Below are positions 18,955-37,805 of a stretch of DNA of 41,049 nt, piece by piece; the first letter of the stretch is position 1; the number at the start of each line of letters is the position of its first letter. The notes under the pieces were generated by a model that saw only the letters and a list, made by a program, of their open reading frames with translations, was not told where the DNA came from and ran no database searches. Origin of the DNA: Desulfobulbaceae bacterium (lineage in GTDB: Bacteria; Desulfobacterota; Desulfobulbia; Desulfobulbales; Desulfobulbaceae); assembly GCA_015493715.1 (NCBI GenBank), contig WGCP01000369.1:1-41049 (forward strand), given 5' to 3'. The translations under genes were made by a program, and so were the position numbers.

Positions 18955-20088
18955 TTATCCTTTTTTCCTGAAGATCAGACGGCCTGTTTTCAGCAGCTCA
19001 TCAACATCCTTTTGCTCAACCTGGCGATAGGAGGTAACGCGCAGCGCCTTGCCGGAATATTTGAGCCGCGCCTGAAACCACCTGCCGCCTTTTTTGAGCA
19101 GGGCCACGGTCTTGCCGGAATCCTTGATGATCATGTCCGGCCGCTCGCCGAGTAGCGGCAGCAACCTGTAGTCTTCCACCGTCAGTCCCGGATAGTTGCG
19201 CAGGTTTTTCAGCAGGAAATCTTTGCTGAATACCGCCACTCCGGCCTTACTGTTGATCGCCTCGGCCGCGTCTTTACGCAGTCGCAGGACCGGAAAATCA
19301 CCAACCGGATTTTTGAGAAAGCGGGCAAATCCATCCGCAGCCAGCAGGTCCTTTAACACCAGGGTGGATAACTTCTGCGGGTATTGCTCCAGACGGTCGG
19401 TCATAACCCCGGCCATCTGCTGCCAGTAAACCTTGCCCGGATTGTGTTTGAATCCGGGATCAGGAATCAACGGCCGGGCAGGCATCCGGTTACCGGAGGC
19501 CTGGTCGATCGGCTCAATCAGCCGGTTGGTCGGATCCACATGCTCAACCTTGATTCCGCTGGCCTTGGCCTGGCCCCTGGTGAGACCGATGACCGAGCAG
19601 CGGCAGCGGTAGCCGTTGGGAGGAAACCAGGTGTCCCACACAGGATGATCCGCCGGCCATACCCTGCCGTCCATGGCCAGGTGTGTCGGCCTGGTCCTGG
19701 AATCGTTGATGGCCGAATACTGCCAGTAGGGGAAAACATCCCGATCAGCCATCAACTGCTTGTAGTGGCCGACGTTGTAGGCGGTCTGGATATTGGTCCG
19801 AAAGATATTATCGACCCGCCAGGCCCGCTTGCCGGTCCATCCCCGCCGCAAAAAAATATCACCGCACTCTTTCTTGAAATCATCAAACGATGTGCCGGAA
19901 TCTATCGCCCGCTGCAGGGCCGTAAATACCGTGTTCAGTTCATCGCCCTTGGCGATTCCGGAAACGGCAAAGGCCCGCAGCTTTGCCTCATCGGCCAGTT
20001 TCCCGAACTCGCCCGGACCCAGCTTGACCTTGTCATTCCAGAACTGCTGCGCCTCCTCCATGGGCAGTGGTTTCAGTTCAATGGTCAT
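18955..20088 (-). CDS. Mu F-like head morphogenesis protein
   Basis: NDSRTRPTHLAMDGRVWPADHPVWDTWFPPNGYRCRCSV is the Phage_Mu_F signature. Confidence 0.9.
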   Translation of the reverse strand: MTIELKPLPMEEAQQFWNDKVKLGPGEFGKLADEAKLRAFAVSGIAKGDELNTVFTALQRAIDSGTSFDDFKKECGDIFLRRGWTGKRAWRVDNIFRTNIQTAYNVGHYKQLMADRDVFPYWQYSAINDSRTRPTHLAMDGRVWPADHPVWDTWFPPNGYRCRCSVIGLTRGQAKASGIKVEHVDPTNRLIEPIDQASGNRMPARPLIPDPGFKHNPGKVYWQQMAGVMTDRLEQYPQKLSTLVLKDLLAADGFARFLKNPVGDFPVLRLRKDAAEAINSKAGVAVFSKDFLLKNLRNYPGLTVEDYRLLPLLGERPDMIIKDSGKTVALLKKGGRWFQARLKYSGKALRVTSYRQVEQKDVDELLKTGRLIFRKKG

Positions 20089-21607
20089 CCTGGACCACCT
20101 TGCGGCCGTAGAGATCGGCCGCCAACATGGATTGCTCGGCCATCTCCCGCAGACTGCTCATATCCATTGTCGGGTAGAGCTCCAGCAGCTTTTCCATGGC
20201 CTCTTCGTACGAGGCTGCATTCCGCACAATCTCAAGGATCGACTGTTCAACGGCCGTTAAATCCACCTTTACAAGGCTGTGATCGACCAGTGCCTCAATG
20301 GCCTGCTGTTCAGCCGTGAAACCGGCGGGTTCTGCAAATTCCTGTTTCCCCGGCTGCTGGGTGGCGGTTGCCGTCGAATCCATAATCTCGATATCATCCT
20401 CCTGGAAGCCGTACCGCCGCATGTAGTAGCTCTTGGTCAACCGTACCTGACCGGATTCGGTAATGGTCTTGTCCCGGTCGGCAAAATCCTTTTGCGGATC
20501 CTCGGACTCAAACCAGATAAATTTCGGGGTCGGCACTCCCGGTGCGTTGACCTGTCCATAGATGGTTGCGATTTCATCCATGGTGGTCTTGACCAGGGCC
20601 TGGTCGGATTCCCGGTAATCGTCAAGGACGTCTTCATGGACCTTCCCTGCCGCATAACTGCCCTTGTCCCCGACCTCGGCTGTCAGGGTCTGGCCCATAA
20701 TCACCTTGGACACTTCTTTGTCCATGGCGTCCTTTAATTTCTCAAAGGCCAGGTGCGAGCCGCCGGTCTTGCCGGTGCCGCCAAGCATTTCCACCGTGTT
20801 GCCGTCCGGGACCACGGCAACCGCGTCCTGGACCATTTTCTTCAGGGCGGCAAGCATGGTGTCCTGCTCTTTCTTTTTGGCGCCCTGCCGATATTTACCC
20901 AGCAAAAACGGCATGCCGTATTTTTCCGCAAAGGTGACCCAGAACTTGATGCCGCCTTTTTTAAACATCACCGGCCAGAAACACCGGGACAGCAGACGCA
21001 ACCCATAGGGGTTGTCGTAGGTCGGGAAGTGCCGGGCAAAGACGAACTTGCCCCAGGGCAACTCCTCACCATCATCAGGCTCGGCCAGGCTTTTGAATCT
21101 CGGCTTGTTGTCACTGCCGAACCCGAACCACCTGTGCGGCAGCGGGCGCAGGTCCTGCAGCCTGATGCCGCCTTCTCCCGGCTGCCAGAGCAACTCCACC
21201 GGCGTCATGCCGTAATAGGGCGCATCCAACAGGGAGGATATCAGGTCGAACATGCTGATCTTCTCCAGATCGGCCAGCAGCATCTCGCACAGTTTCTCCG
21301 AGGCGGGCGTCGGTTTATCGTTTTCCTTGCCCGGATCAAAACGCCACTCCCGTTTCATGGTGCCGACCTTTCTGGTCTGGATCACGGACAGGACATGTCC
21401 GTCACTGGTCAGGGAATCCAGAATCTCGGCGCCGTCTCCGCGCTTGGTCAATATCGGGTCCGGATCAGGCAGCAGCCCGATCAGCTCGGTAAAATCCCAG
21501 GCCTCCGAACGGGAGGCGATTTCCCGGGCCAGCGATTTTCGATTCACCGCCTCTTCGCCGAATTCCATGTACCGGTCAGGGGTGATCCACAGTCCGTCGG
21601 CCATCAA
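20078..21607 (-). CDS. Portal protein (Mu gp29 / DUF935-like)
   Basis: 509 aa, lying between the large terminase and F. Confidence 0.85.
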   Translation of the reverse strand: MMADGLWITPDRYMEFGEEAVNRKSLAREIASRSEAWDFTELIGLLPDPDPILTKRGDGAEILDSLTSDGHVLSVIQTRKVGTMKREWRFDPGKENDKPTPASEKLCEMLLADLEKISMFDLISSLLDAPYYGMTPVELLWQPGEGGIRLQDLRPLPHRWFGFGSDNKPRFKSLAEPDDGEELPWGKFVFARHFPTYDNPYGLRLLSRCFWPVMFKKGGIKFWVTFAEKYGMPFLLGKYRQGAKKKEQDTMLAALKKMVQDAVAVVPDGNTVEMLGGTGKTGGSHLAFEKLKDAMDKEVSKVIMGQTLTAEVGDKGSYAAGKVHEDVLDDYRESDQALVKTTMDEIATIYGQVNAPGVPTPKFIWFESEDPQKDFADRDKTITESGQVRLTKSYYMRRYGFQEDDIEIMDSTATATQQPGKQEFAEPAGFTAEQQAIEALVDHSLVKVDLTAVEQSILEIVRNAASYEEAMEKLLELYPTMDMSSLREMAEQSMLAADLYGRKVVQDDH

Positions 21608-23070
21608 TATCCCTCAAACATGGTTGCGGTTTCCAGCCTGACATCGGAGATGATCTCGGTATCGCCATAGACCTCCTGCCTGGTTGCGTGCCATGCCATG
21701 GCCCCGGCAATACCGGAATCGCCGTGCCGTTGTTCCTTGCCCGCCTTGGTGCTGGAGTCCGGCAGCATGGCAACGCCCTTGACCATTTTAAAGGCCCGGT
21801 GGTCTTCGATAATATCCGCGTCTTTGGGCAGGAGGATGGTACGATCCTCAAAGGCGGCTTTATATGGAGGCATGTTCTCCCGGTACCAGGACACGGACAG
21901 CATGACCTCGCTGATCATGGCCTCCCCGTATTTCTGGGCCGCGACCTCGGCCAAATACTGGCCGTTGCCCCGTGCGTCAAAACTGCCATGCGCAAAACGG
22001 GGCAGCCGGTTGATAATGTAGAAGACAATCTGCTTCTGCTGCTGGAAGGGGATATTTCTCATTTCCAGCAAAAACGGAGCGGCAAAGGTGGCGTCCTGCC
22101 TCTCCTGCAGGGGCAGGACCACGGACAGGTCACCACTGCGGCCAAAGTCCTCCCCGAGATAGGACAGCCGGTCCGGATCCATACCGGCAAGGAGCGGTTG
22201 CAGGTGATCCTCGCACCAGGCCTCAACCTCGGAGATCCGCTCCTCTTCCGGATAAAACTTGAATTCATCGGTCTGGGCGTAGCGGATGACCGGAATATCG
22301 CTGCTCATGCAGTTTTCCACCAGCACCCTGGAGAGATATGTTCCTCCGCCCTTGGAGGGTATGCAGAACAATTCCTCATCGGCATCAGAGCCATAGAAGT
22401 CGATCATCTCCTGACGCCAGGCCTTTTCCGCCTCCGGTGACCATTGCAGGCCGCGCACCAGACAAATGCGCCGGTACAGCCCGGCCTCCAGGGCCTCATC
22501 AAAGGTGACCCGGTGCAGGGAATAGGGCTTGCGGCCCGCCCGAATATCCTTGACCAATTCATTAAAAGGATTGTCCTCTCCGTCATGGGTGGAAATCACC
22601 CGCACCTGTCCGCCCCACATCAGCAGGGCCATGGCGGCCTTGAGCAGCTCGGAGAGCTGGTCGTGAAACGCGGCCTCATCAATGACGACCCGGCCCTGTT
22701 TACCACGCAGGTTGGAGGGCCGTGACGACAGGGCGACAATCTTGTGACCGGAGGAAAACTTGATCCGAAAGGTAAGGATATCCTTGCCCTCATCAACAAT
22801 GACCTCTTCCTCGACCTCTTCCGCCGCCAGGTCATACTGTTTTGCCCAGAAGGCGCAGTCCTCGATAAATTCTTCGGCCATATCCTTGTTGTAGCCGATG
22901 TACCAGACATCATCCCCGGCAGATGACGCGGCATACAGGGCATCATCCCCGGCCTCGGACCAGGAGAGACCGATACGCCTCGACTTCTCAATCACCTTGA
23001 CCGGAGCCGGATCACCGGCCCACGCCTGCTGGTACGACAAGAAAACGTATGGAGAGTTGTCTGTTGTCAT
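21604..23070 (-). CDS. Terminase large subunit (Mu gp28-like)
   Basis: Start at MTTDNS (ATGA overlap with the upstream stop). Position and size fit. Confidence 0.85.
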   Translation of the reverse strand: MTTDNSPYVFLSYQQAWAGDPAPVKVIEKSRRIGLSWSEAGDDALYAASSAGDDVWYIGYNKDMAEEFIEDCAFWAKQYDLAAEEVEEEVIVDEGKDILTFRIKFSSGHKIVALSSRPSNLRGKQGRVVIDEAAFHDQLSELLKAAMALLMWGGQVRVISTHDGEDNPFNELVKDIRAGRKPYSLHRVTFDEALEAGLYRRICLVRGLQWSPEAEKAWRQEMIDFYGSDADEELFCIPSKGGGTYLSRVLVENCMSSDIPVIRYAQTDEFKFYPEEERISEVEAWCEDHLQPLLAGMDPDRLSYLGEDFGRSGDLSVVLPLQERQDATFAAPFLLEMRNIPFQQQKQIVFYIINRLPRFAHGSFDARGNGQYLAEVAAQKYGEAMISEVMLSVSWYRENMPPYKAAFEDRTILLPKDADIIEDHRAFKMVKGVAMLPDSSTKAGKEQRHGDSGIAGAMAWHATRQEVYGDTEIISDVRLETATMFEGY

Positions 23071-23504
23071 TGCCCGATTCCAAGGATCTGCCGACGGATA
23101 CCGTCCACCGTTTCGCTGGTAAGCCCGGCCTTTTTCACTTCCTTGACCACATCTTCCGCAACCCGCTGCGCCTTTTCCATCTTGTCCCAACGCTCAAGTA
23201 GGGAACCAAGCTTAGACATGACATCCATCATCGGCGCCGTCCGCTCAATGGGCTTGAGACCCTCCAGAAAGGCCAACTGTTCCTCAAACAGATCGCGCAG
23301 ACGCTGGATGTTGCCGCGCTTCTGCGCCCGGGCGCGGTCCCATTCATCCATGTCCGCGGACGGTCGCTTGCTTTCGGCCTTCCAGCGGGCAAGCGAGGTG
23401 ACCGATACCCCAAGCACGTCGGAAATATCAGACAGGCTATGGCCGTCGGCATACATCCGCTTCGCCTGGGGTTCGAGATGTCCCTTTGCCCCTTTCTTAG
23501 CCAT
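23067..23504 (-). CDS. Terminase small subunit-like (Mu gp27 / DUF1804-like) HTH protein
   Basis: AKRMYADGHSLSDISDVLGVSVTSLARWK...DEWDRAR pattern. Confidence 0.7.
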   Translation of the reverse strand: MAKKGAKGHLEPQAKRMYADGHSLSDISDVLGVSVTSLARWKAESKRPSADMDEWDRARAQKRGNIQRLRDLFEEQLAFLEGLKPIERTAPMMDVMSKLGSLLERWDKMEKAQRVAEDVVKEVKKAGLTSETVDGIRRQILGIGQ

Positions 23505-25807: not shown

Positions 25808-26032
25808 TTAAAGCAGTTTTATCGATTGGTCAACTGATTGCTGCACCGAGTCGATGATCAGGCTCAGTCCGTAGATGTCGCTTTCGTCCAGGTCCAGGCG
25901 GCTGCAGTCGGCAATGGCACGGTTGACAAAACCGAGCACCGCGCTGGCTGCGGCAAGCAGATCAGCGGGATGCTCACCCGCAACCGGCAGCCCGGTTTTT
26001 TCGGCAGCCTCTATGCTGCTTGCGGCAGGCAT
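25808..26032 (-). CDS. Hypothetical acidic protein (74 aa)
   Basis: TGATG start/stop coupling to the ORF6N gene. Confidence 0.5.
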   Translation of the reverse strand: MPAASSIEAAEKTGLPVAGEHPADLLAAASAVLGFVNRAIADCSRLDLDESDIYGLSLIIDSVQQSVDQSIKLL

Positions 26033-26808
26033 CAGGCCACCACCTTGCCGTGACCGTCCTTCCTGATCATCCCCATCTTGAATGCCAGTTTTTCATACCG
26101 CTGCACGGTTGAATTTGAGACATCAAGCAGCTTGGCGGTTTCCCGCTGGGTATTTCCCCGCCTTCGGTAGAGGATGAGCTTATCAAGGAAATTCTCGGGA
26201 AATCCTGATTTCCGGAGAGCGGAAATCATCCTGATGGCCGCCCTGGCCGCCTCGCCCTGGATGGCCTCAACAAGTTCCTGCACCGCCGGAACATACTCCG
26301 GCGGCAAGTCGGCGATCTTCTTGCGGGCAAATACGCCCCTGTCGCCGAACAATGTCGTGATGGCCTCCCCGGCCCGGCTCCCGGACGCTCCGGCCATGGC
26401 GCTTTCTTCCAGGGCGGAAAAGGCCCGCATGATCTGGACGGAACGCTTGGCCGCGACATCGCTTTTCAGAACAGCCGACAACATATTGGCGCCATTGCGG
26501 GTAAACATCCAGGGCCGGACATCATCTCCCGCGTAAATTTTGGTCACATTTTGTGACCTCAAGCTTGGCTCTTCGTCTCCCTCATAAATTTTGGTCGCAT
26601 TTTGCGACCGAATTAGCTCGATCTCGTTTTTAGTCGCCTGAAACACAAAATCTTCCGGGAACCTATCCGGATTACGACGAACCGCCTCATTTGCCCGCTT
26701 GGTTTTGACCCCATAAATAGCGGCAACACTGCTGGCTAACATGGCCGGTGGACGGTTGGGAAGGGTGATGATTGTTGACTGGATGTCTTTGACTGTTACT
26801 TCGCGCAT
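26032..26808 (-). CDS. ORF6N (Bro-N/KilA-N-related) domain protein with C-terminal HTH
   Basis: AAIYGVKTKRANEAVRRNPDRFPEDFVFQ...RSQN.T...PWMFTRNGANMLSAVLKSD..A...SVQIMRAF matches the ORF6N pattern. The C-terminus RRRGNTQRETAKLLDVSNSTVQRYEK is HTH-like. GGAGG SD. Confidence 0.85.
   Translation of the reverse strand: MREVTVKDIQSTIITLPNRPPAMLASSVAAIYGVKTKRANEAVRRNPDRFPEDFVFQATKNEIELIRSQNATKIYEGDEEPSLRSQNVTKIYAGDDVRPWMFTRNGANMLSAVLKSDVAAKRSVQIMRAFSALEESAMAGASGSRAGEAITTLFGDRGVFARKKIADLPPEYVPAVQELVEAIQGEAARAAIRMISALRKSGFPENFLDKLILYRRRGNTQRETAKLLDVSNSTVQRYEKLAFKMGMIRKDGHGKVVA
26533..26609. repeat. Two 26-bp repeats 51 bp apart, each holding a 17-bp dyad, inside the ORF6N CDS
   Basis: GGTCAC-ATTTT-GTGACC at 26542-26558 and GGTCGC-ATTTT-GCGACC at 26593-26609. 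The A>G change in one arm is matched by T>C in the other arm. Confidence 0.9.
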
Positions 26809-26965
26809 GATATGCCTCCGTTTGGGAAAAAGTATCCCGCCCCTTCGCTGTTAAACAAAAATGGGCGGGCCGATGCGGGTTAACAGACCGGCTCAAACGG
26901 AAACCGGCGAGCCCGAAGGCTCCCCGCACAGCCCGCCCAACTTGAAGCGGCCATGCAACGGACAT

Positions 26966-26999
26966 AAAAAAACCGCATATCCCCGAAAGGGAAAGGCGG
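26966..26999 (-). terminator. Intrinsic terminator after the 27107..27511 gene
   Basis: Minus strand reads CCGCCTTTCCC-TTTC-GGGGATATGCGG followed by TTTTTTT. Confidence 0.6.
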
Positions 27000-27106
27000 T
27001 ATGTCCGCCGTTTGAATCTCGGGCTGTTAATCCCGGCAACCGATTTTGCGGCTGCAGGTATACCCGTAGCACATCCGACGGACATTGTCAAGTTAAGGTT
27101 CGTCTA

Positions 27107-27511: not shown

Positions 27512-27636
27512 TGTTCCTCTCCTTTCTTGTTATTGTGCCGTTATCGGCAAAAAAACCACAAAACGACAAAACCACATGAATCACAGTTCAGCAACACTTA
27601 CAGCCATTTTGTGACCGTTCTTCCGTGAAAAAACAT

Positions 27637-27664
27637 TTGACAGGTCCCCTTGGACCATGATAAT
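27637..27664 (+). promoter_or_regulatory. Sigma70-type promoter with a palindromic operator in the spacer
   Basis: TTGACA (27637-27642), 16-nt spacer, GATAAT (27659-27664). The spacer contains GGTCC-CCTT-GGACC. Confidence 0.6.
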
Positions 27665-34379: not shown

Positions 34380-34870
34380 GATGTTCTCCCTTCCATACCG
34401 GTTGGCCTGGCAATCTGTCTACTGGCGAGCATATAGGTGGTGTACCGTCCGTCCTTGCCGGTCTTTTTGATGTACCCATACGTTTCGAGCAGAAAAACAT
34501 ATTCATCGACCGTTCCTCTGCCTGCTCCTGACGCAATGACCAGGTCACGGCGGGTAAAGTGTCGCTTTGCCCGAATGAGTCGCCATATCCGGCCGCGCAG
34601 TGTGTTTTTCTGCAGGGACTGTTTTGGCCGTTCGGTCAAATTTCGGATGATCTTCCAGGTTGGATTCCGCCGGGCAGGGCCGAATTCTCCAAAGCGCAGC
34701 GGTTGTGGATTGTCGGCGATTTCCTGCAGATATCCCTCGTTGGCAAGTTTATCAAGTGCCCGCAGGGCCGGACGCCTGGGAAGCTCGGTTTTGGTAAGAA
34801 CCTCCTGCAAACAGACCCGCTTTTTCTCACAGGTAAGCAGGTGATGAATAAGAGGATCCAGGACAGTCAT
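34376..34870 (-). CDS. Hypothetical protein, winged-helix-like repeats (164 aa)
   Basis: RRPALRALDKLANEGYL and GTVDEYVFLLETYGYI segments. Confidence 0.55.
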   Translation of the reverse strand: MTVLDPLIHHLLTCEKKRVCLQEVLTKTELPRRPALRALDKLANEGYLQEIADNPQPLRFGEFGPARRNPTWKIIRNLTERPKQSLQKNTLRGRIWRLIRAKRHFTRRDLVIASGAGRGTVDEYVFLLETYGYIKKTGKDGRYTTYMLASRQIARPTGMEGRTS

Positions 34871-35556
34871 TTTGCCCCCCTGTATTGCTGCAGGTCGGCG
34901 GCGGACACGCTTTTGAGATCATTCAGCCGCGCCATCTGCTCGGCCCTGGACATCCAGGTGGTTATCAGTCTGAGTTTGCCTTTCGACTGACCGAAAATGT
35001 ACGAAATCGCATCCTTATCAAGCGGTATCTCACATATTTGATCGGCGAGATTCGCGATTTCTTTTTCGTCAAAAAGGTTAAATTTGACGACCGCAGAAAT
35101 GCGGTCAAAGAGGTGGCGAAAACGCTTCAGTTTTTTGTCGGCATGTTCCATACCCATCAGGACAATGGGTATATTGGTAATATCGTTGAGATCCCGTAGG
35201 ACCTCGACCATGCCGCCGCGCATGAGATAGTCAACCTCATCCACAAGCAACGGCCGGGGACGATCAAAAAGCTGCTCAACCGCCTGGTCAAAGAGCGCGT
35301 CCGAACGAAAAGCCGGGGCCTCTCCGAGTTCGGCGACGATATTGCTCAGTAAACTGCGGCGGGAGGTGATATCCTTGGCCCTGATATACGGCACGTCATT
35401 CCTTGCCGCATACCACATCCCGGTCTCGGTTTTACCGGTGCCGGGAGGACCGAAGGCCAACATCATGCCGATCCTGCCCCTGATCGGCGTGCGCACAACT
35501 TCAATTCCGGCCGCAAACCGCTGCACGTTTTTTGTCATGGCAAAAGTGTCTTTCAT
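34867..35556 (-). CDS. MuB-like AAA+ transposition ATPase
   Basis: Walker A FGPPGTGKT and Walker B LLVDEVD. Directly downstream of the transposase. Confidence 0.9.
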   Translation of the reverse strand: MKDTFAMTKNVQRFAAGIEVVRTPIRGRIGMMLAFGPPGTGKTETGMWYAARNDVPYIRAKDITSRRSLLSNIVAELGEAPAFRSDALFDQAVEQLFDRPRPLLVDEVDYLMRGGMVEVLRDLNDITNIPIVLMGMEHADKKLKRFRHLFDRISAVVKFNLFDEKEIANLADQICEIPLDKDAISYIFGQSKGKLRLITTWMSRAEQMARLNDLKSVSAADLQQYRGAK

Positions 35557-35621: not shown

Positions 35622-37805
35622 TTATTTCATCGCCTGTTCTTTGGCGTCTTCAACGCCGTATTCAAGCCGCAGATCACCTACCAGCGACATGTACATCCGG
35701 CCGCCATCTTCCAGGTAATATTCATCAAGGAATGCACATTCATCCAGGGTGAGCGGGCGGGGAGATTGCCGCAGGGCCGCCAGGATAGCGTCAAACCGCT
35801 CGCTTTTTGTTGAGTATATACGCTGGATCGGCGCTGCTTTTTCTTCCTGCGGTCCTGCCGGACGCTGCTTTTCTACTGGACGATTAACCTCGACCAGATC
35901 GATATACTGGTCATCGGTCATCTGCCGGATGGCGGTATCATGGTCCTGGTCGGCATGGATAATGAGGTCTTTATCTATATCCATATCAAGCAGGTGGATT
36001 CCCGACCTCTCGGCCTCAACCTCTTCAATCTTGCGTTCAAGCAGCTTTTTCCGGCCGGTGTAGCGTTTGTCTCGGTCCTGTTCTACTTCTGAAAGCGGGT
36101 AAAAGTCTTTCTTGTTCCTGTTCAGATGTGCCAGGCATATCAACCGTTGCTCCATATCACGGACACGGACGTATGACGGGTCATGGATGTCATATTCAAC
36201 AATGACCTTCTCGCCGTGGTAATGCTCCAGGGCGGCCTCGTAATAGACATTGTTGTGCAGGCTGATCTGGCTACGGATAGCCTTGCGGACAGTCTGAGGA
36301 CGGAACAAATCGGACAGGATCTCCGGCGGCAGCAGTGTCGGTTCCCAGCCGTTTTTTATCGCCGTAAACCATGCTTCCGCAGGGGTCATGTGCCTGATGC
36401 GCTGCGTGGCGGCATCCCGCATCTTCGGCAGCCCGGCATGCGGCGTGTTGTTGTAATCGCGGACCGATTGCTCGCAAAATTCGATAAATTGTCGCCAGGA
36501 CGGCAGGTCACTGGTCACGCATGTGCCGGTGGCTTTGACCTCTTTTTCATGGGCAAGGTAAATTTTTCTCTTGACCAGTTCGTCCATTCCTTTGCCGACA
36601 TAGGTGTCAAGCTTGCGGGCTGCGGAGATCCAGAGCCGTTGGTTTGTTTTCTCGACCAGGCCGCGCCCCTGGGCGTTGCCGGGGATGCCGGTTTTGTGGG
36701 TTATTCCGGCCCTGGCAAGGACGCCGGTAACCTCATCACTGAGGATGTGGGCCATGTTGCCGGCGCCGTTATCCGTATACAGGATGGCAGGCACACCGCC
36801 CCACGGCTTTTGATCATTGACCGTCATGGCGTTGCGCAGGGCATCGGCCACCGTATGGGCTGATTCAGCCAGGCCCGTTGACCAGCCGAGGCACATCTTT
36901 GTTTTCACATCGATGACAGCGCAGACCTCCGGTTTAAACGGCCTGCCGTGAACCGGATGCGCGACCTTTGCCTTGAAGGAATGGCCGTCACACTGCACGA
37001 CATCACAGGGGAGCAGGTTGTCCGTGGATCGTTTAATATAACCGCGAAAACGCTTGAGAGCAGACGGGCTGTGTCTCCCTTTTTCCCGTTCCAGCCGGGA
37101 TCGTTTGTGATGGTATCGCCGGAGCTGGTGATAGCTCGGCATCTGGATATTTTCCGGCAGGATATGCTCCAGCTCCCGCATTGCCTCCGGTATGGACGGC
37201 TTTTGCGGTCGGTTGTAAACTTTATGAAAATAAGGACCCCATTCGGGGACCTGCTCCTTGCGAGCCTGTTTTGGGGCCAGAGATGCCTCACCGTATCGAC
37301 GGATTTTACGCTGCCAGCCGAAGATTGTGGACCGGGAGAGTGTGCGTCCGTTGCCTCGGCGCGCATTGGCAAGGTGGACCATCTTTTGTAGATTTTCCGG
37401 AAGCATTTCTGCTTTGGCAAGCTTTACCAGCTTGTCCGCCGCCTTCGTGGCGCCGTGTAGTTCTTTAAGCTCTTCAAATTTCCGGTACAGCGCCAGGCGC
37501 GCGGTGAGCACGTCCCTCTGCCATTTTTTCAAGGAGCCGGTTTCCGCCCTGGCGTCTGCGGTTGCAACGATGGTTTTTGTATGAGCCGGTAGTATTGGTA
37601 ATATTTCGGCGCTGGCACGGCAAAACAGGTCATCCCTGGTCTCTTGCGGGAGAGATTCAATATAATATTCCCGGCCGCCACCGCGATTACTGGTATTGTA
37701 TTTATAGAGCCAGTCTTCGCGTTTTGCTTTTGCGTTGATACCCTGCACCGTCTTCGGCATACCGGCAACCCCTGCTAATTCTGCTGCCGTGTACCATTTC
37801 TTCAT
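35622..37805 (-). CDS. Mu A-like DDE transposase (727 aa)
   Basis: N-terminal Mu-type HTH WYTAAELAGVAGMPKTVQGINAKAKREDW. DDE candidates in VVQCDGHSF, ILYTDNGAG and GLVEKTNQ. Confidence 0.95.
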   Translation of the reverse strand: MKKWYTAAELAGVAGMPKTVQGINAKAKREDWLYKYNTSNRGGGREYYIESLPQETRDDLFCRASAEILPILPAHTKTIVATADARAETGSLKKWQRDVLTARLALYRKFEELKELHGATKAADKLVKLAKAEMLPENLQKMVHLANARRGNGRTLSRSTIFGWQRKIRRYGEASLAPKQARKEQVPEWGPYFHKVYNRPQKPSIPEAMRELEHILPENIQMPSYHQLRRYHHKRSRLEREKGRHSPSALKRFRGYIKRSTDNLLPCDVVQCDGHSFKAKVAHPVHGRPFKPEVCAVIDVKTKMCLGWSTGLAESAHTVADALRNAMTVNDQKPWGGVPAILYTDNGAGNMAHILSDEVTGVLARAGITHKTGIPGNAQGRGLVEKTNQRLWISAARKLDTYVGKGMDELVKRKIYLAHEKEVKATGTCVTSDLPSWRQFIEFCEQSVRDYNNTPHAGLPKMRDAATQRIRHMTPAEAWFTAIKNGWEPTLLPPEILSDLFRPQTVRKAIRSQISLHNNVYYEAALEHYHGEKVIVEYDIHDPSYVRVRDMEQRLICLAHLNRNKKDFYPLSEVEQDRDKRYTGRKKLLERKIEEVEAERSGIHLLDMDIDKDLIIHADQDHDTAIRQMTDDQYIDLVEVNRPVEKQRPAGPQEEKAAPIQRIYSTKSERFDAILAALRQSPRPLTLDECAFLDEYYLEDGGRMYMSLVGDLRLEYGVEDAKEQAMK

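Follow-up and report, generated by a model that had tools for sequence, protein, structure and literature searches.

The lambdoid operators are 17-bp sites with the consensus TATCAC-N5-GTGATA that are bound by dimers of helix-turn-helix (HTH) proteins such as lambda cI and Cro. Palindromic cis-acting sites also occur within coding DNA, as with parS in parB/spo0J, the lambda origin iterons in gene O, and lacO2 and galOI in lacZ and galE, and for parS and ori-O the site lies within the gene of its own binding protein. The lambda iterons are 6-5-6 dyads with an A-rich centre and a variable copy number, and they encode a repeated peptide. Here we analysed a 41,049-nucleotide stretch of contig WGCP01000369.1 from a Desulfobulbaceae bacterium (the window, meaning this stretch at its full length), in which two 17-bp dyads lie inside an ORF6N-HTH gene. 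From sequence comparison, we give a probability of roughly 0.6 to the reading that each dyad is an operator-type site in double-stranded DNA for a dimer of the ORF6N domain encoded by the same gene.

The ORF6N dyads resemble the lambdoid operators in their 17-bp length, their 6-5-6 layout with a fixed spacer, the presence of multiple adjacent sites and the tie between Gln and an A.T pair, and one ORF6N subtype carries the half-site TATCAC/GTGATA (GGTATCAC-AAAAT-GTGATACC). Unlike those operators, they lie in the coding sequence of the binder's own domain rather than between genes, and their arms are often perfect over 10-14 bp; the fold is ORF6N rather than that of cI or Cro, and binding is predicted from sequence. 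As with parS and ori-O, the palindrome is a cis site within the gene of its (predicted) binder. Unlike parS, ori-O, lacO2 and galOI, the ORF6N site is conserved over a whole Pfam family, whichever of several frames it is read in, and follows a readable code between residue and base. Furthermore, most ORF6N genes carry a single copy and show no sign of an origin or partition function, which sets them apart from parS and the lambda origin.

Two dyads in one gene and their counterparts across the ORF6N family

The gene and the elements within it lie in the window as follows.

26032 to 26808, minus strand: ORF6N-HTH gene, 258 residues, with the ORF6N domain at residues 1-135, long helices, and a C-terminal HTH at residues ~207-244
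26593 to 26609: dyad 1, plus-strand letters GGTCGCATTTTGCGACC (GGTCGC-ATTTT-GCGACC), encoding RSQNAT, residues 67-72
26542 to 26558: dyad 2, plus-strand letters GGTCACATTTTGTGACC (GGTCAC-ATTTT-GTGACC), encoding RSQNVT, residues 84-89
26508 to 26609, minus strand: two 51-bp tandem repeat units, 26559-26609 being the upstream and 26508-26558 the downstream copy in gene orientation
26671 to 26703, minus strand: codons of a predicted helix, residues 36-46 (TKRANEAVRRN), with R38 at 26695-26697 and E41 at 26686-26688

The initial annotation of this DNA had described two perfect dyads with compensatory substitutions, 51 bp apart, and had put the gain from the duplication at about 17 residues, in the RSQ..T segment. 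Both the sequences and the coordinates were confirmed: each dyad is a perfect 6-5-6 palindrome, one in each 51-bp unit, and the added residues follow from the repeat itself. The two units are identical at 38 of 51 positions overall and at 32 of 37 in their 3' part, which includes the dyads. On the coding strand, dyad 1 reads cGG TCG CAA AAT GCG ACC and dyad 2 reads aGG TCA CAA AAT GTG ACC, so that a single compensated base pair combines a synonymous change in the third base of a Ser codon with a non-synonymous Ala/Val change in the second base of another. A simulation gave a chance of ~2% that two random substitutions would leave a 17-nt dyad changed yet perfect. The protein matches the ORF6N family PF10543 over residues 21-113 (E 1.1e-20; 74.1 bits, cutoff 27.8). 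In an AlphaFold2 (AF2) model the ORF6N domain was confident except at residues ~70-99, a loop between helix 60-73 and strand 100-102 with a pLDDT of ~51 for residues 71-90, and the extra 17 residues of the duplication are thus predicted to sit in a loop that tolerates them.

No further perfect copy of the dyad was found elsewhere in the 41-kb window, where 0.28 copies would be expected at up to one mismatch. A near-dyad with one arm mismatch, GGTCACATAACGTGGCC, occurs at 1305-1321 within a minus-strand late-region open reading frame (ORF) and is compatible with that chance expectation. An 11-nt repeat of the dyad 2 spacer and right arm (ATTTTGTGACC) stands at 27606-27616, with only 1/6 of a left arm and hence a half-site at most; it lies ~20 nt upstream of a strong sigma-70-like promoter reading on the plus strand (TTGACA at 27637-27642, TGATAAT near 27659). 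Neither was convincing as an additional operator.

We then compared the DNA of ~100 distinct ORF6N genes from many phyla, taken from plasmids and from collections of genomes, metagenomes and viruses. The proteins closest to that of the window were only 48-59% identical to it, and a cultured-phage database held close ORF6N relatives in four records only. Almost all genes had, at the site homologous to window codons 67-72, perfect inverted arms on either side of an A/T-rich spacer of 5 nt. When the register was fixed, 6/6 pairs were found at 40 of 76 homolog sites and 5/6 at 11 more; when it was scanned without regard to frame, a perfect stem of at least 5 bp was present at 66 of 76 distinct sites (69/83 in a larger set). 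Perfect stems of at least 8 bp occurred at 65% of 83 homolog sites; among 5036 control windows taken from these loci the figure was 0.8%. Arms range from 6 to 14 bp and usually span 8-14 bp, as in TTTGAGGTCGC-AAATT-GCGACCTCAAA, with 35 mismatches in 969 stem pairs. In an alignment of 75 sequences, 85.5% of cells were paired, against 59% after column shuffling and 35-39% with slid partners. The covariation score was 0.647 (0.18 in shuffles, 0.10-0.15 in slid controls), and double-sided changes were seen at 12/12 stem pairs.

The symmetry extends to synonymous codon choice. Ser TCA occurred with Val GTG in 25/25 genes and Ser TCG with Ala GCG in 23/24, while in flanking parts of the same genes these codons make up 16-26% of their codon families. 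Furthermore, in some subfamilies the palindrome is read in other frames within a closely homologous surrounding protein: its usual reading is L-R-S-Q-I-A-T-S, and the alternatives include GTC GCA ATT TGC GAC (VAICD), GTA ACA AAA TGT TAC (VTKCY) and GTG GTC GAA AAT TTC GAC CAC (VVENFDH). Because the palindrome is kept in these other frames, selection acts on the DNA or RNA and not on the RSQ..T peptide, and a protein-level cause of the conserved RSQ..T motif was rejected on the grounds of the synonymous-codon linkage and the frame-shifted variants. The earlier suggestion that the symmetry itself is selected therefore gained support from a family-wide, frame-independent palindrome with covariation at every stem pair. 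Its assumption that the dyads are tied to this gene or to the 51-bp insert did not hold, since the dyad is also present in relatives with one copy, where its arms are mostly much longer. We found no description of the element in the literature on ORF6N, its core sequences or KilA-N palindromes, nor in Rfam. Two small Segatella copri plasmids (L128 and L129, 2.9 and 4.1 kb), annotated only with a replication initiator and an ORF6N gene, carry the palindrome in the further readings VVENFDH and EVIKKFDNL.

A predicted recognition helix that varies with one base pair

The base pair that differs between the window dyads, second from the spacer (stem position 2), also varies across the family. We compared it with residues of the helix ..TKRxNExVKRN.., numbering back from the Asn of the RN..RFP motif, so that residue -5 is E41 and residue -8 is R38 in the window protein. 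In the first set, by raw counts that kinship inflates, Glu at -5 occurred with G.C in 32/32 genes, Gln with A.T in 31 and T.A in 4 of 39, and Arg with C.G. A scan of 27 residues against 8 stem positions ranked residue -5 and base pair 2 as the strongest pair (mutual information 1.07 bits, z 21), followed by residue -8, where Arg goes with G.C and Ala, Thr or Val with A.T. On a neighbour-joining (NJ) tree with Fitch parsimony, 10 same-branch co-changes were counted against 2.7 expected, with switches in at least four clades. Two sets of genes that had not been used before gave the same pairings: Q-A.T 11/11, E-G.C 5/7 and R-C.G 1/1 in one, and Q 10/10, E 4/4, R 5/5 and K-C.G 3/3 in the other. 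Agreement with the rule was ~95% over the three independent sets.

The rule was also obeyed by frame-shifted genes and by variants whose closing pair differs (L021, L025, L017, L012, L010, L128, L129, L132 and L137). A contact within the protein fails to explain the coevolution, because base pair 2 encodes other residues in these genes. The observed pairings match textbook side-chain preferences, namely Arg or Lys for G, Gln for A, and Glu or Asp for C. The AF2 model places strand 22-24, helix 25-32 and then residues 36-45 as the second helix of a strand-helix-helix unit that resembles an HTH. Because the key base pair changes in step with a residue of this putative DNA-reading helix, the protein encoded by this gene most likely binds the dyads. 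The initial annotation had left the choice between an intragenic DNA and an RNA element, and this coevolution of protein and DNA favours a DNA site tied to the gene's own product. The window protein is of the R38/E41 (G.C) type; dyad 1 has G.C at stem position 2 and by the family rule would be its cognate site, and dyad 2 has A.T and would fall in the Gln-type class.

Intragenic tandem copies recur in the family. Besides the window (51 nt), they were found in Bacteroides ovatus L135 (51 nt), in L043 (42 nt) and in L001 (three copies, 33 nt apart), and P0009, P0017 and P0025 (loci L243, L242 and L244) also have more than one intragenic palindrome. The E-type protein P0017 has a G.C and then an A.T site, the R-type P0009 has C.G and then A.T, and the Q-type L001 has G.C, C.G and A.T sites. 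We observed that such multi-copy genes (P0017, P0009, P0025, L001 and L135) usually mix classes, and that in the E- and R-types it is the first copy that agrees with the protein, the last being A.T.

Copies also occur outside the coding sequence. In the 5' leader or at the transcription start they were seen in L016, L021, L025, L030, L049, L081, L136 and L214 and in the plasmid matches H48 and H61, and just past the stop codon in L130, L207 and H54/H55. Loci of the Margulis, Sagan and WOR-1 types have one or two copies between a sigma-54-like TGGCA-N7-TTGCT motif and the Shine-Dalgarno/ATG. In L016, L021, L025, L030, L049 and L081, the motif (TGGCA/TGGTA-N7-TTGCT) lies ~30-110 nt upstream of the ORF6N start, with the palindrome 3-18 nt after it. 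L214 and Butyrivibrio L136 have a copy 5-15 nt ahead of the start codon; in L136 it is a 13-bp hairpin placed 15 nt from the ATG, and the hairpin within the gene is gone. Beyond the stop codon, copies lie at 7-22 nt in L130 (a Legionella pneumophila plasmid) and L207, and the same placements recur in Segatella, Bacteroides and Legionella plasmid matches. In locus L008 (3540-3640), two palindromes follow the ORF6N gene, one between its stop and the next ORF and the second in the first 20 codons of a GspF/PilC-like ORF. The latter is translated as FLKSQIATS, and the true start of this GspF/PilC-like ORF may lie downstream of the annotated one.

Extra copies were found within ~300 nt of ORF6N genes and were not spread through the 6-kb flanks, and a BLAST search of plasmids with the palindrome gave mostly ORF6N-adjacent matches. 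This clustering led us to reject a dispersed element of the repetitive extragenic palindromic (REP) kind. REP sequences and their associated RAYT genes (REPtrons) are comparable in that a short palindrome family is linked to and flanks one gene family, with copies at gene 3' ends. They differ in that the ORF6N palindrome shows no genome-wide dispersal in the loci examined, its master copy is intragenic, and ORF6N lacks HUH motifs. One weak plasmid match (E ~2) is an imperfect hairpin, AAGGTCAC-AAATT-GTGGCCTT, at 2495-2530 of L234, located close to humD/phd-doc in a part of P1-like IncY plasmids that carries no annotation (~190 records).

Both window dyads lie ~200-260 nt into the ORF and neither is near a promoter, whereas the copies of relatives lie at or near the transcription start or in the leader. 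The following mechanism would fit these data. The helix would read base pair 2 in the major groove, with Arg38 and Glu41 specifying G.C, and in relatives Gln specifying A.T and Arg or Lys specifying C.G. Binding might then feed back on the gene as autoregulation or as a roadblock, which is suggested by the copies that relatives have at transcription starts, and in those relatives the intragenic site would act jointly with the sites at the start. In the window, the 51-bp duplication would have made a second site, ~4.9 helical turns away, that was later switched symmetrically to the A.T class, and at this centre spacing two dimers could share one helix face. The gene would thus carry one site that matches its own protein and one of another specificity class, and a role of the sites in self- or cross-recognition is possible.

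Alternative explanations and points against an operator

The strongest alternative, which we nevertheless consider unlikely, is a cis-acting hairpin in the mRNA that affects stability, translation pausing or coupling, or binds a protein as RNA, with the leader and 3' copies serving as 5' stabilizers or terminators. Every extra copy does lie within a plausible transcription unit, and the stems are longer than a protein footprint requires. Furthermore, 90 viral-contig stretches contained the 19-mer AGGTCRC-AAWTT-GYGACCT, a count inflated by two large related phage groups, whereas two controls with permuted stems were found in 2 stretches each. Two conserved phage contexts account for ~27 loci. 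In the retrieved loci (L140-L219), the hairpin lay inside an ORF6N ORF in 12 of 80 and near one in 4 more. The remaining phage hairpins are intergenic, in AT-rich contigs, flanked by T/A runs, terminator-like and unlinked to ORF6N. In these copies the identical hairpin is followed by a U-tract, as in intrinsic terminators, with G.U wobbles on the transcribed strand.

The intragenic copies behave differently. Their 969 stem pairs contained 13 G:T, 10 A:C and 12 other mismatches, so that there was neither an excess of G:T nor tolerance of wobble. The spacer is fixed at 5 nt in nearly all homologs, and inversions of it occur (AAAAT to ATTTT, changing RSQNAT to RSHFAT); in extragenic copies it was T-rich in 12 and A-rich in 11, without orientation bias. 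The absence of wobble, the constant spacer length, the unbiased spacer orientation and the inversions together point to symmetry of the double strand rather than to a fold of the sense-strand RNA. In addition, covariation between helix residues and a base pair fits major-groove readout of B-DNA better than an A-form stem. The intragenic copies lack a U-tract, and on neither strand is a window dyad followed by a T-run, which led us to reject an intragenic intrinsic terminator. Rfam gave no match at the dyads, this region of the window yielding only the C4 and isrK elements further upstream. The window was found in DNA sequencing runs only, and RNA contigs of the relative L118 were too sparse for transcript ends.

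Within the reading of the dyads as protein-binding DNA sites, one functional variant is self-immunity or decoy action of the kind proposed in the initial annotation, which had likened the gene to BstA and its aba element in Salmonella prophage BTP1. Palindromes in the gene itself would then titrate or silence a DNA-sensing ORF6N protein. The concept is apt, since in both cases a phage-borne protein with a KilA-N-like N-terminal domain has a DNA element in its own gene. The anatomy does not agree. The 63-bp aba element covers the initial 34 bp of bstA together with 29 bp ahead of the gene, and direct CCCGCC repeats form its termini; the KilA-N-coding part of bstA is without a dyad (PMC8585504). 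By comparison, the window dyads are inverted repeats at codons 67-89 rather than direct repeats spanning the start codon, and the position of aba, unlike that of the ORF6N palindrome, is not conserved with the domain. Nor does the protein agree, as the window protein had no match to the BstA model in PADLOC and has an HTH in place of the BstA C-terminal domain.

Other observations speak for this variant. ORF6N proteins with a different C-terminus make up PDC-S05, a candidate defence family in PADLOC. Protection of E. coli from T7, T5 and T4 has been reported for one member (bioRxiv 10.1101/2024.09.26.614923), which makes a defence link for the family plausible. Relatives are located in restriction-modification or integrase islands, multi-copy genes hold sites of several specificity classes, and the motif is enriched in phage contigs as described above. 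However, the window protein matches PDC-S05 only over residues 3-135 (E 3.5e-31), that is, through the N-terminal ORF6N domain alone, with the HTH replacing the C-terminal effector, whereas the L130 protein matches it over its full length (E 3.8e-121). The site behind a C4 antisense RNA is moreover that of an antirepressor-type regulator. We regard self-immunity as improbable for this gene.

Still less probable is a DNA hairpin or cruciform, formed in single-stranded DNA or extruded by supercoiling, that serves as a signal for replication, recombination or transfer of ORF6N-bearing mobile elements. Arms of 8-14 bp around a 3-nt A/T core would be ideal for extrusion, pairing is strictly Watson-Crick on both strands, the spacer inversions (AAAAT versus ATTTT) suggest DNA hairpin formation, and tandem duplications recur. 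However, the hosts of ORF6N genes are diverse, comprising a Mu-like prophage, plasmids, chromosomal islands and loci beside housekeeping genes; there is no genome-wide dispersal, and an ORF from an inverted segment was not found. The residue-base pair code would also be left unexplained. The internal and 3' copies of L130 are inverted relative to each other, and a shufflon or inversion acting on this pair was considered and rejected, as the opposite strand has no ORF.

Template switching in quasi-palindrome mutagenesis yields perfect long arms, spacer inversions and no wobble. A functionless, self-perpetuating quasi-palindrome, in which template switching copies arm changes and mimics compensation in a tolerant, low-confidence loop, would fit the long perfect arms, the inversions and the lack of wobble, but it is very improbable given a palindrome that ~90% of genes keep, across phyla and at protein identities of 35-60%, copies placed at leaders and gene ends, the loss of the internal hairpin in L136 beside its 13-bp one before the ATG, and a coevolution with helix residues that it does not explain.

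Several observations weigh against operator-type sites for the gene's own ORF6N product. The initial annotation had named absence of the dyads in close homologs as a result that would speak against its own proposal, and in the closest full-length homolog (P0002/L241) the dyad has indeed decayed to 4/6; this is so in that homolog alone, and P0003, P0004, L031, L033 and L035 keep it. By the family rule, dyad 2 would be non-cognate to the window protein. No promoter-proximal third copy was found in the window, and the 6-bp window arms are the shortest of the family. In relatives, the class of a leader copy often differs from that of the protein next to it, a hint that ORF6N paralogs may cross-regulate one another. 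The raw coevolution counts are inflated by kinship, and the tree test was a quick NJ tree with Fitch parsimony. The choice of helix 36-45 as the recognition helix is a prediction: a fold and sequence search of the PDB gave no significant ORF6N relative and no solved ORF6N structure, with only weak winged-HTH similarities and matches to the C-terminal HTH. The hairpin also has an RNA-level use, through the terminator-like phage copies. Finally, arms that are perfect to 10-14 bp exceed the typical footprint of a dimer, and for this reason intrastrand pairing or template-switch homogenization probably also shapes the element.

Prophage surroundings and significance for ORF6N proteins

The window comes from a hydrothermal-vent metagenome and is a Mu-like prophage by gene content. 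The following features surround the ORF6N-HTH gene.

20078 to 21607: Mu portal
21604 to 23190: large terminase
25621 to 25609: terminator-like hairpin downstream of the 74-residue ORF
25808 to 26032, minus strand: ORF of 74 residues, no family match, its start overlapping the ORF6N-HTH stop
26863 to 26943, minus strand: C4 antisense RNA in the ORF6N-HTH leader (RF01695, 61.7 bits, gathering score 45)
26966 to 27055, minus strand: isrK-like RNA (RF01394, 61.2 bits, gathering score 50), overlapping the c4-a1b1 match
27016 to 27068, minus strand: c4-a1b1 target match (RF03163, 38.8 bits, below the gathering score of 46.7)
34867 to 35556: MuB-like ATPase
35622 to 37805: MuA-type transposase

By these matches, the C4/isrK leader appears to be an arrangement like P1 immI (c4 antisense RNA, icd, ant), which would place the gene in the position of an antirepressor-type gene. 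As in P1, a C4 RNA above threshold lies directly upstream with an isrK or c4-target-like element further up, and the PHROG matches of the window protein are to 'anti-repressor'. Unlike in P1, the controlled gene is an ORF6N-HTH gene in a Mu-like prophage, and the dyads bear no relation to c4 targets and are found across the family without c4. The same C4-ORF6N arrangement was found in the relative L237, another Mu-like element with Mor, P22_AR_N and SLT neighbours, where a second C4 precedes the P22_AR_N antirepressor gene. Between the antirepressor operon and the C4-ORF6N module of L237, a 1.2-kb gene-free gap contains matches to group II intron domains at 2082-2708 (RF02001 at 124 bits, RF01998 and RF00029), with no reverse-transcriptase ORF called.

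Other relatives have different surroundings. In Treponema pTS1 (L132), L133 and L135, the ORF6N gene lies between hsdM and hsdS of a type I restriction-modification system or beside integrases and ArdA/JAB genes, and full-length relatives match the PADLOC candidate PDC-S05.

A wider picture, which we offer as tentative and on balance doubtful, is that ORF6N proteins form a large family of DNA binders with their own operators inside the domain coding sequence, that residues -5 and -8 supply the code, that mixed-class sites join them in a network of cross-recognition or heteroimmunity, and that the phage 'terminator' palindromes double as targets or decoys for PDC-S05-type proteins. If this were true, ORF6N proteins of different mobile elements or paralogs could read each other's genes.

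ORF6N and KilA-N-type domains are widespread in phages, plasmids and defence islands, and we know of no DNA target for them. The present comparison gives a predicted 17-bp palindromic target, a predicted recognition helix and a residue-to-base code. It also shows an unusual constraint, in which a DNA site shapes the coding sequence of a protein family and survives changes of reading frame. Apparent protein motifs such as LRSQIATS and VAICD are footprints of the palindrome, and annotators and builders of hidden Markov models should take care, as the ORF6N 'motif' is driven in part by nucleic acid. If the sites mediate self- or cross-recognition, they would bear on the control of prophage antirepressors and on the candidate defence family PDC-S05.

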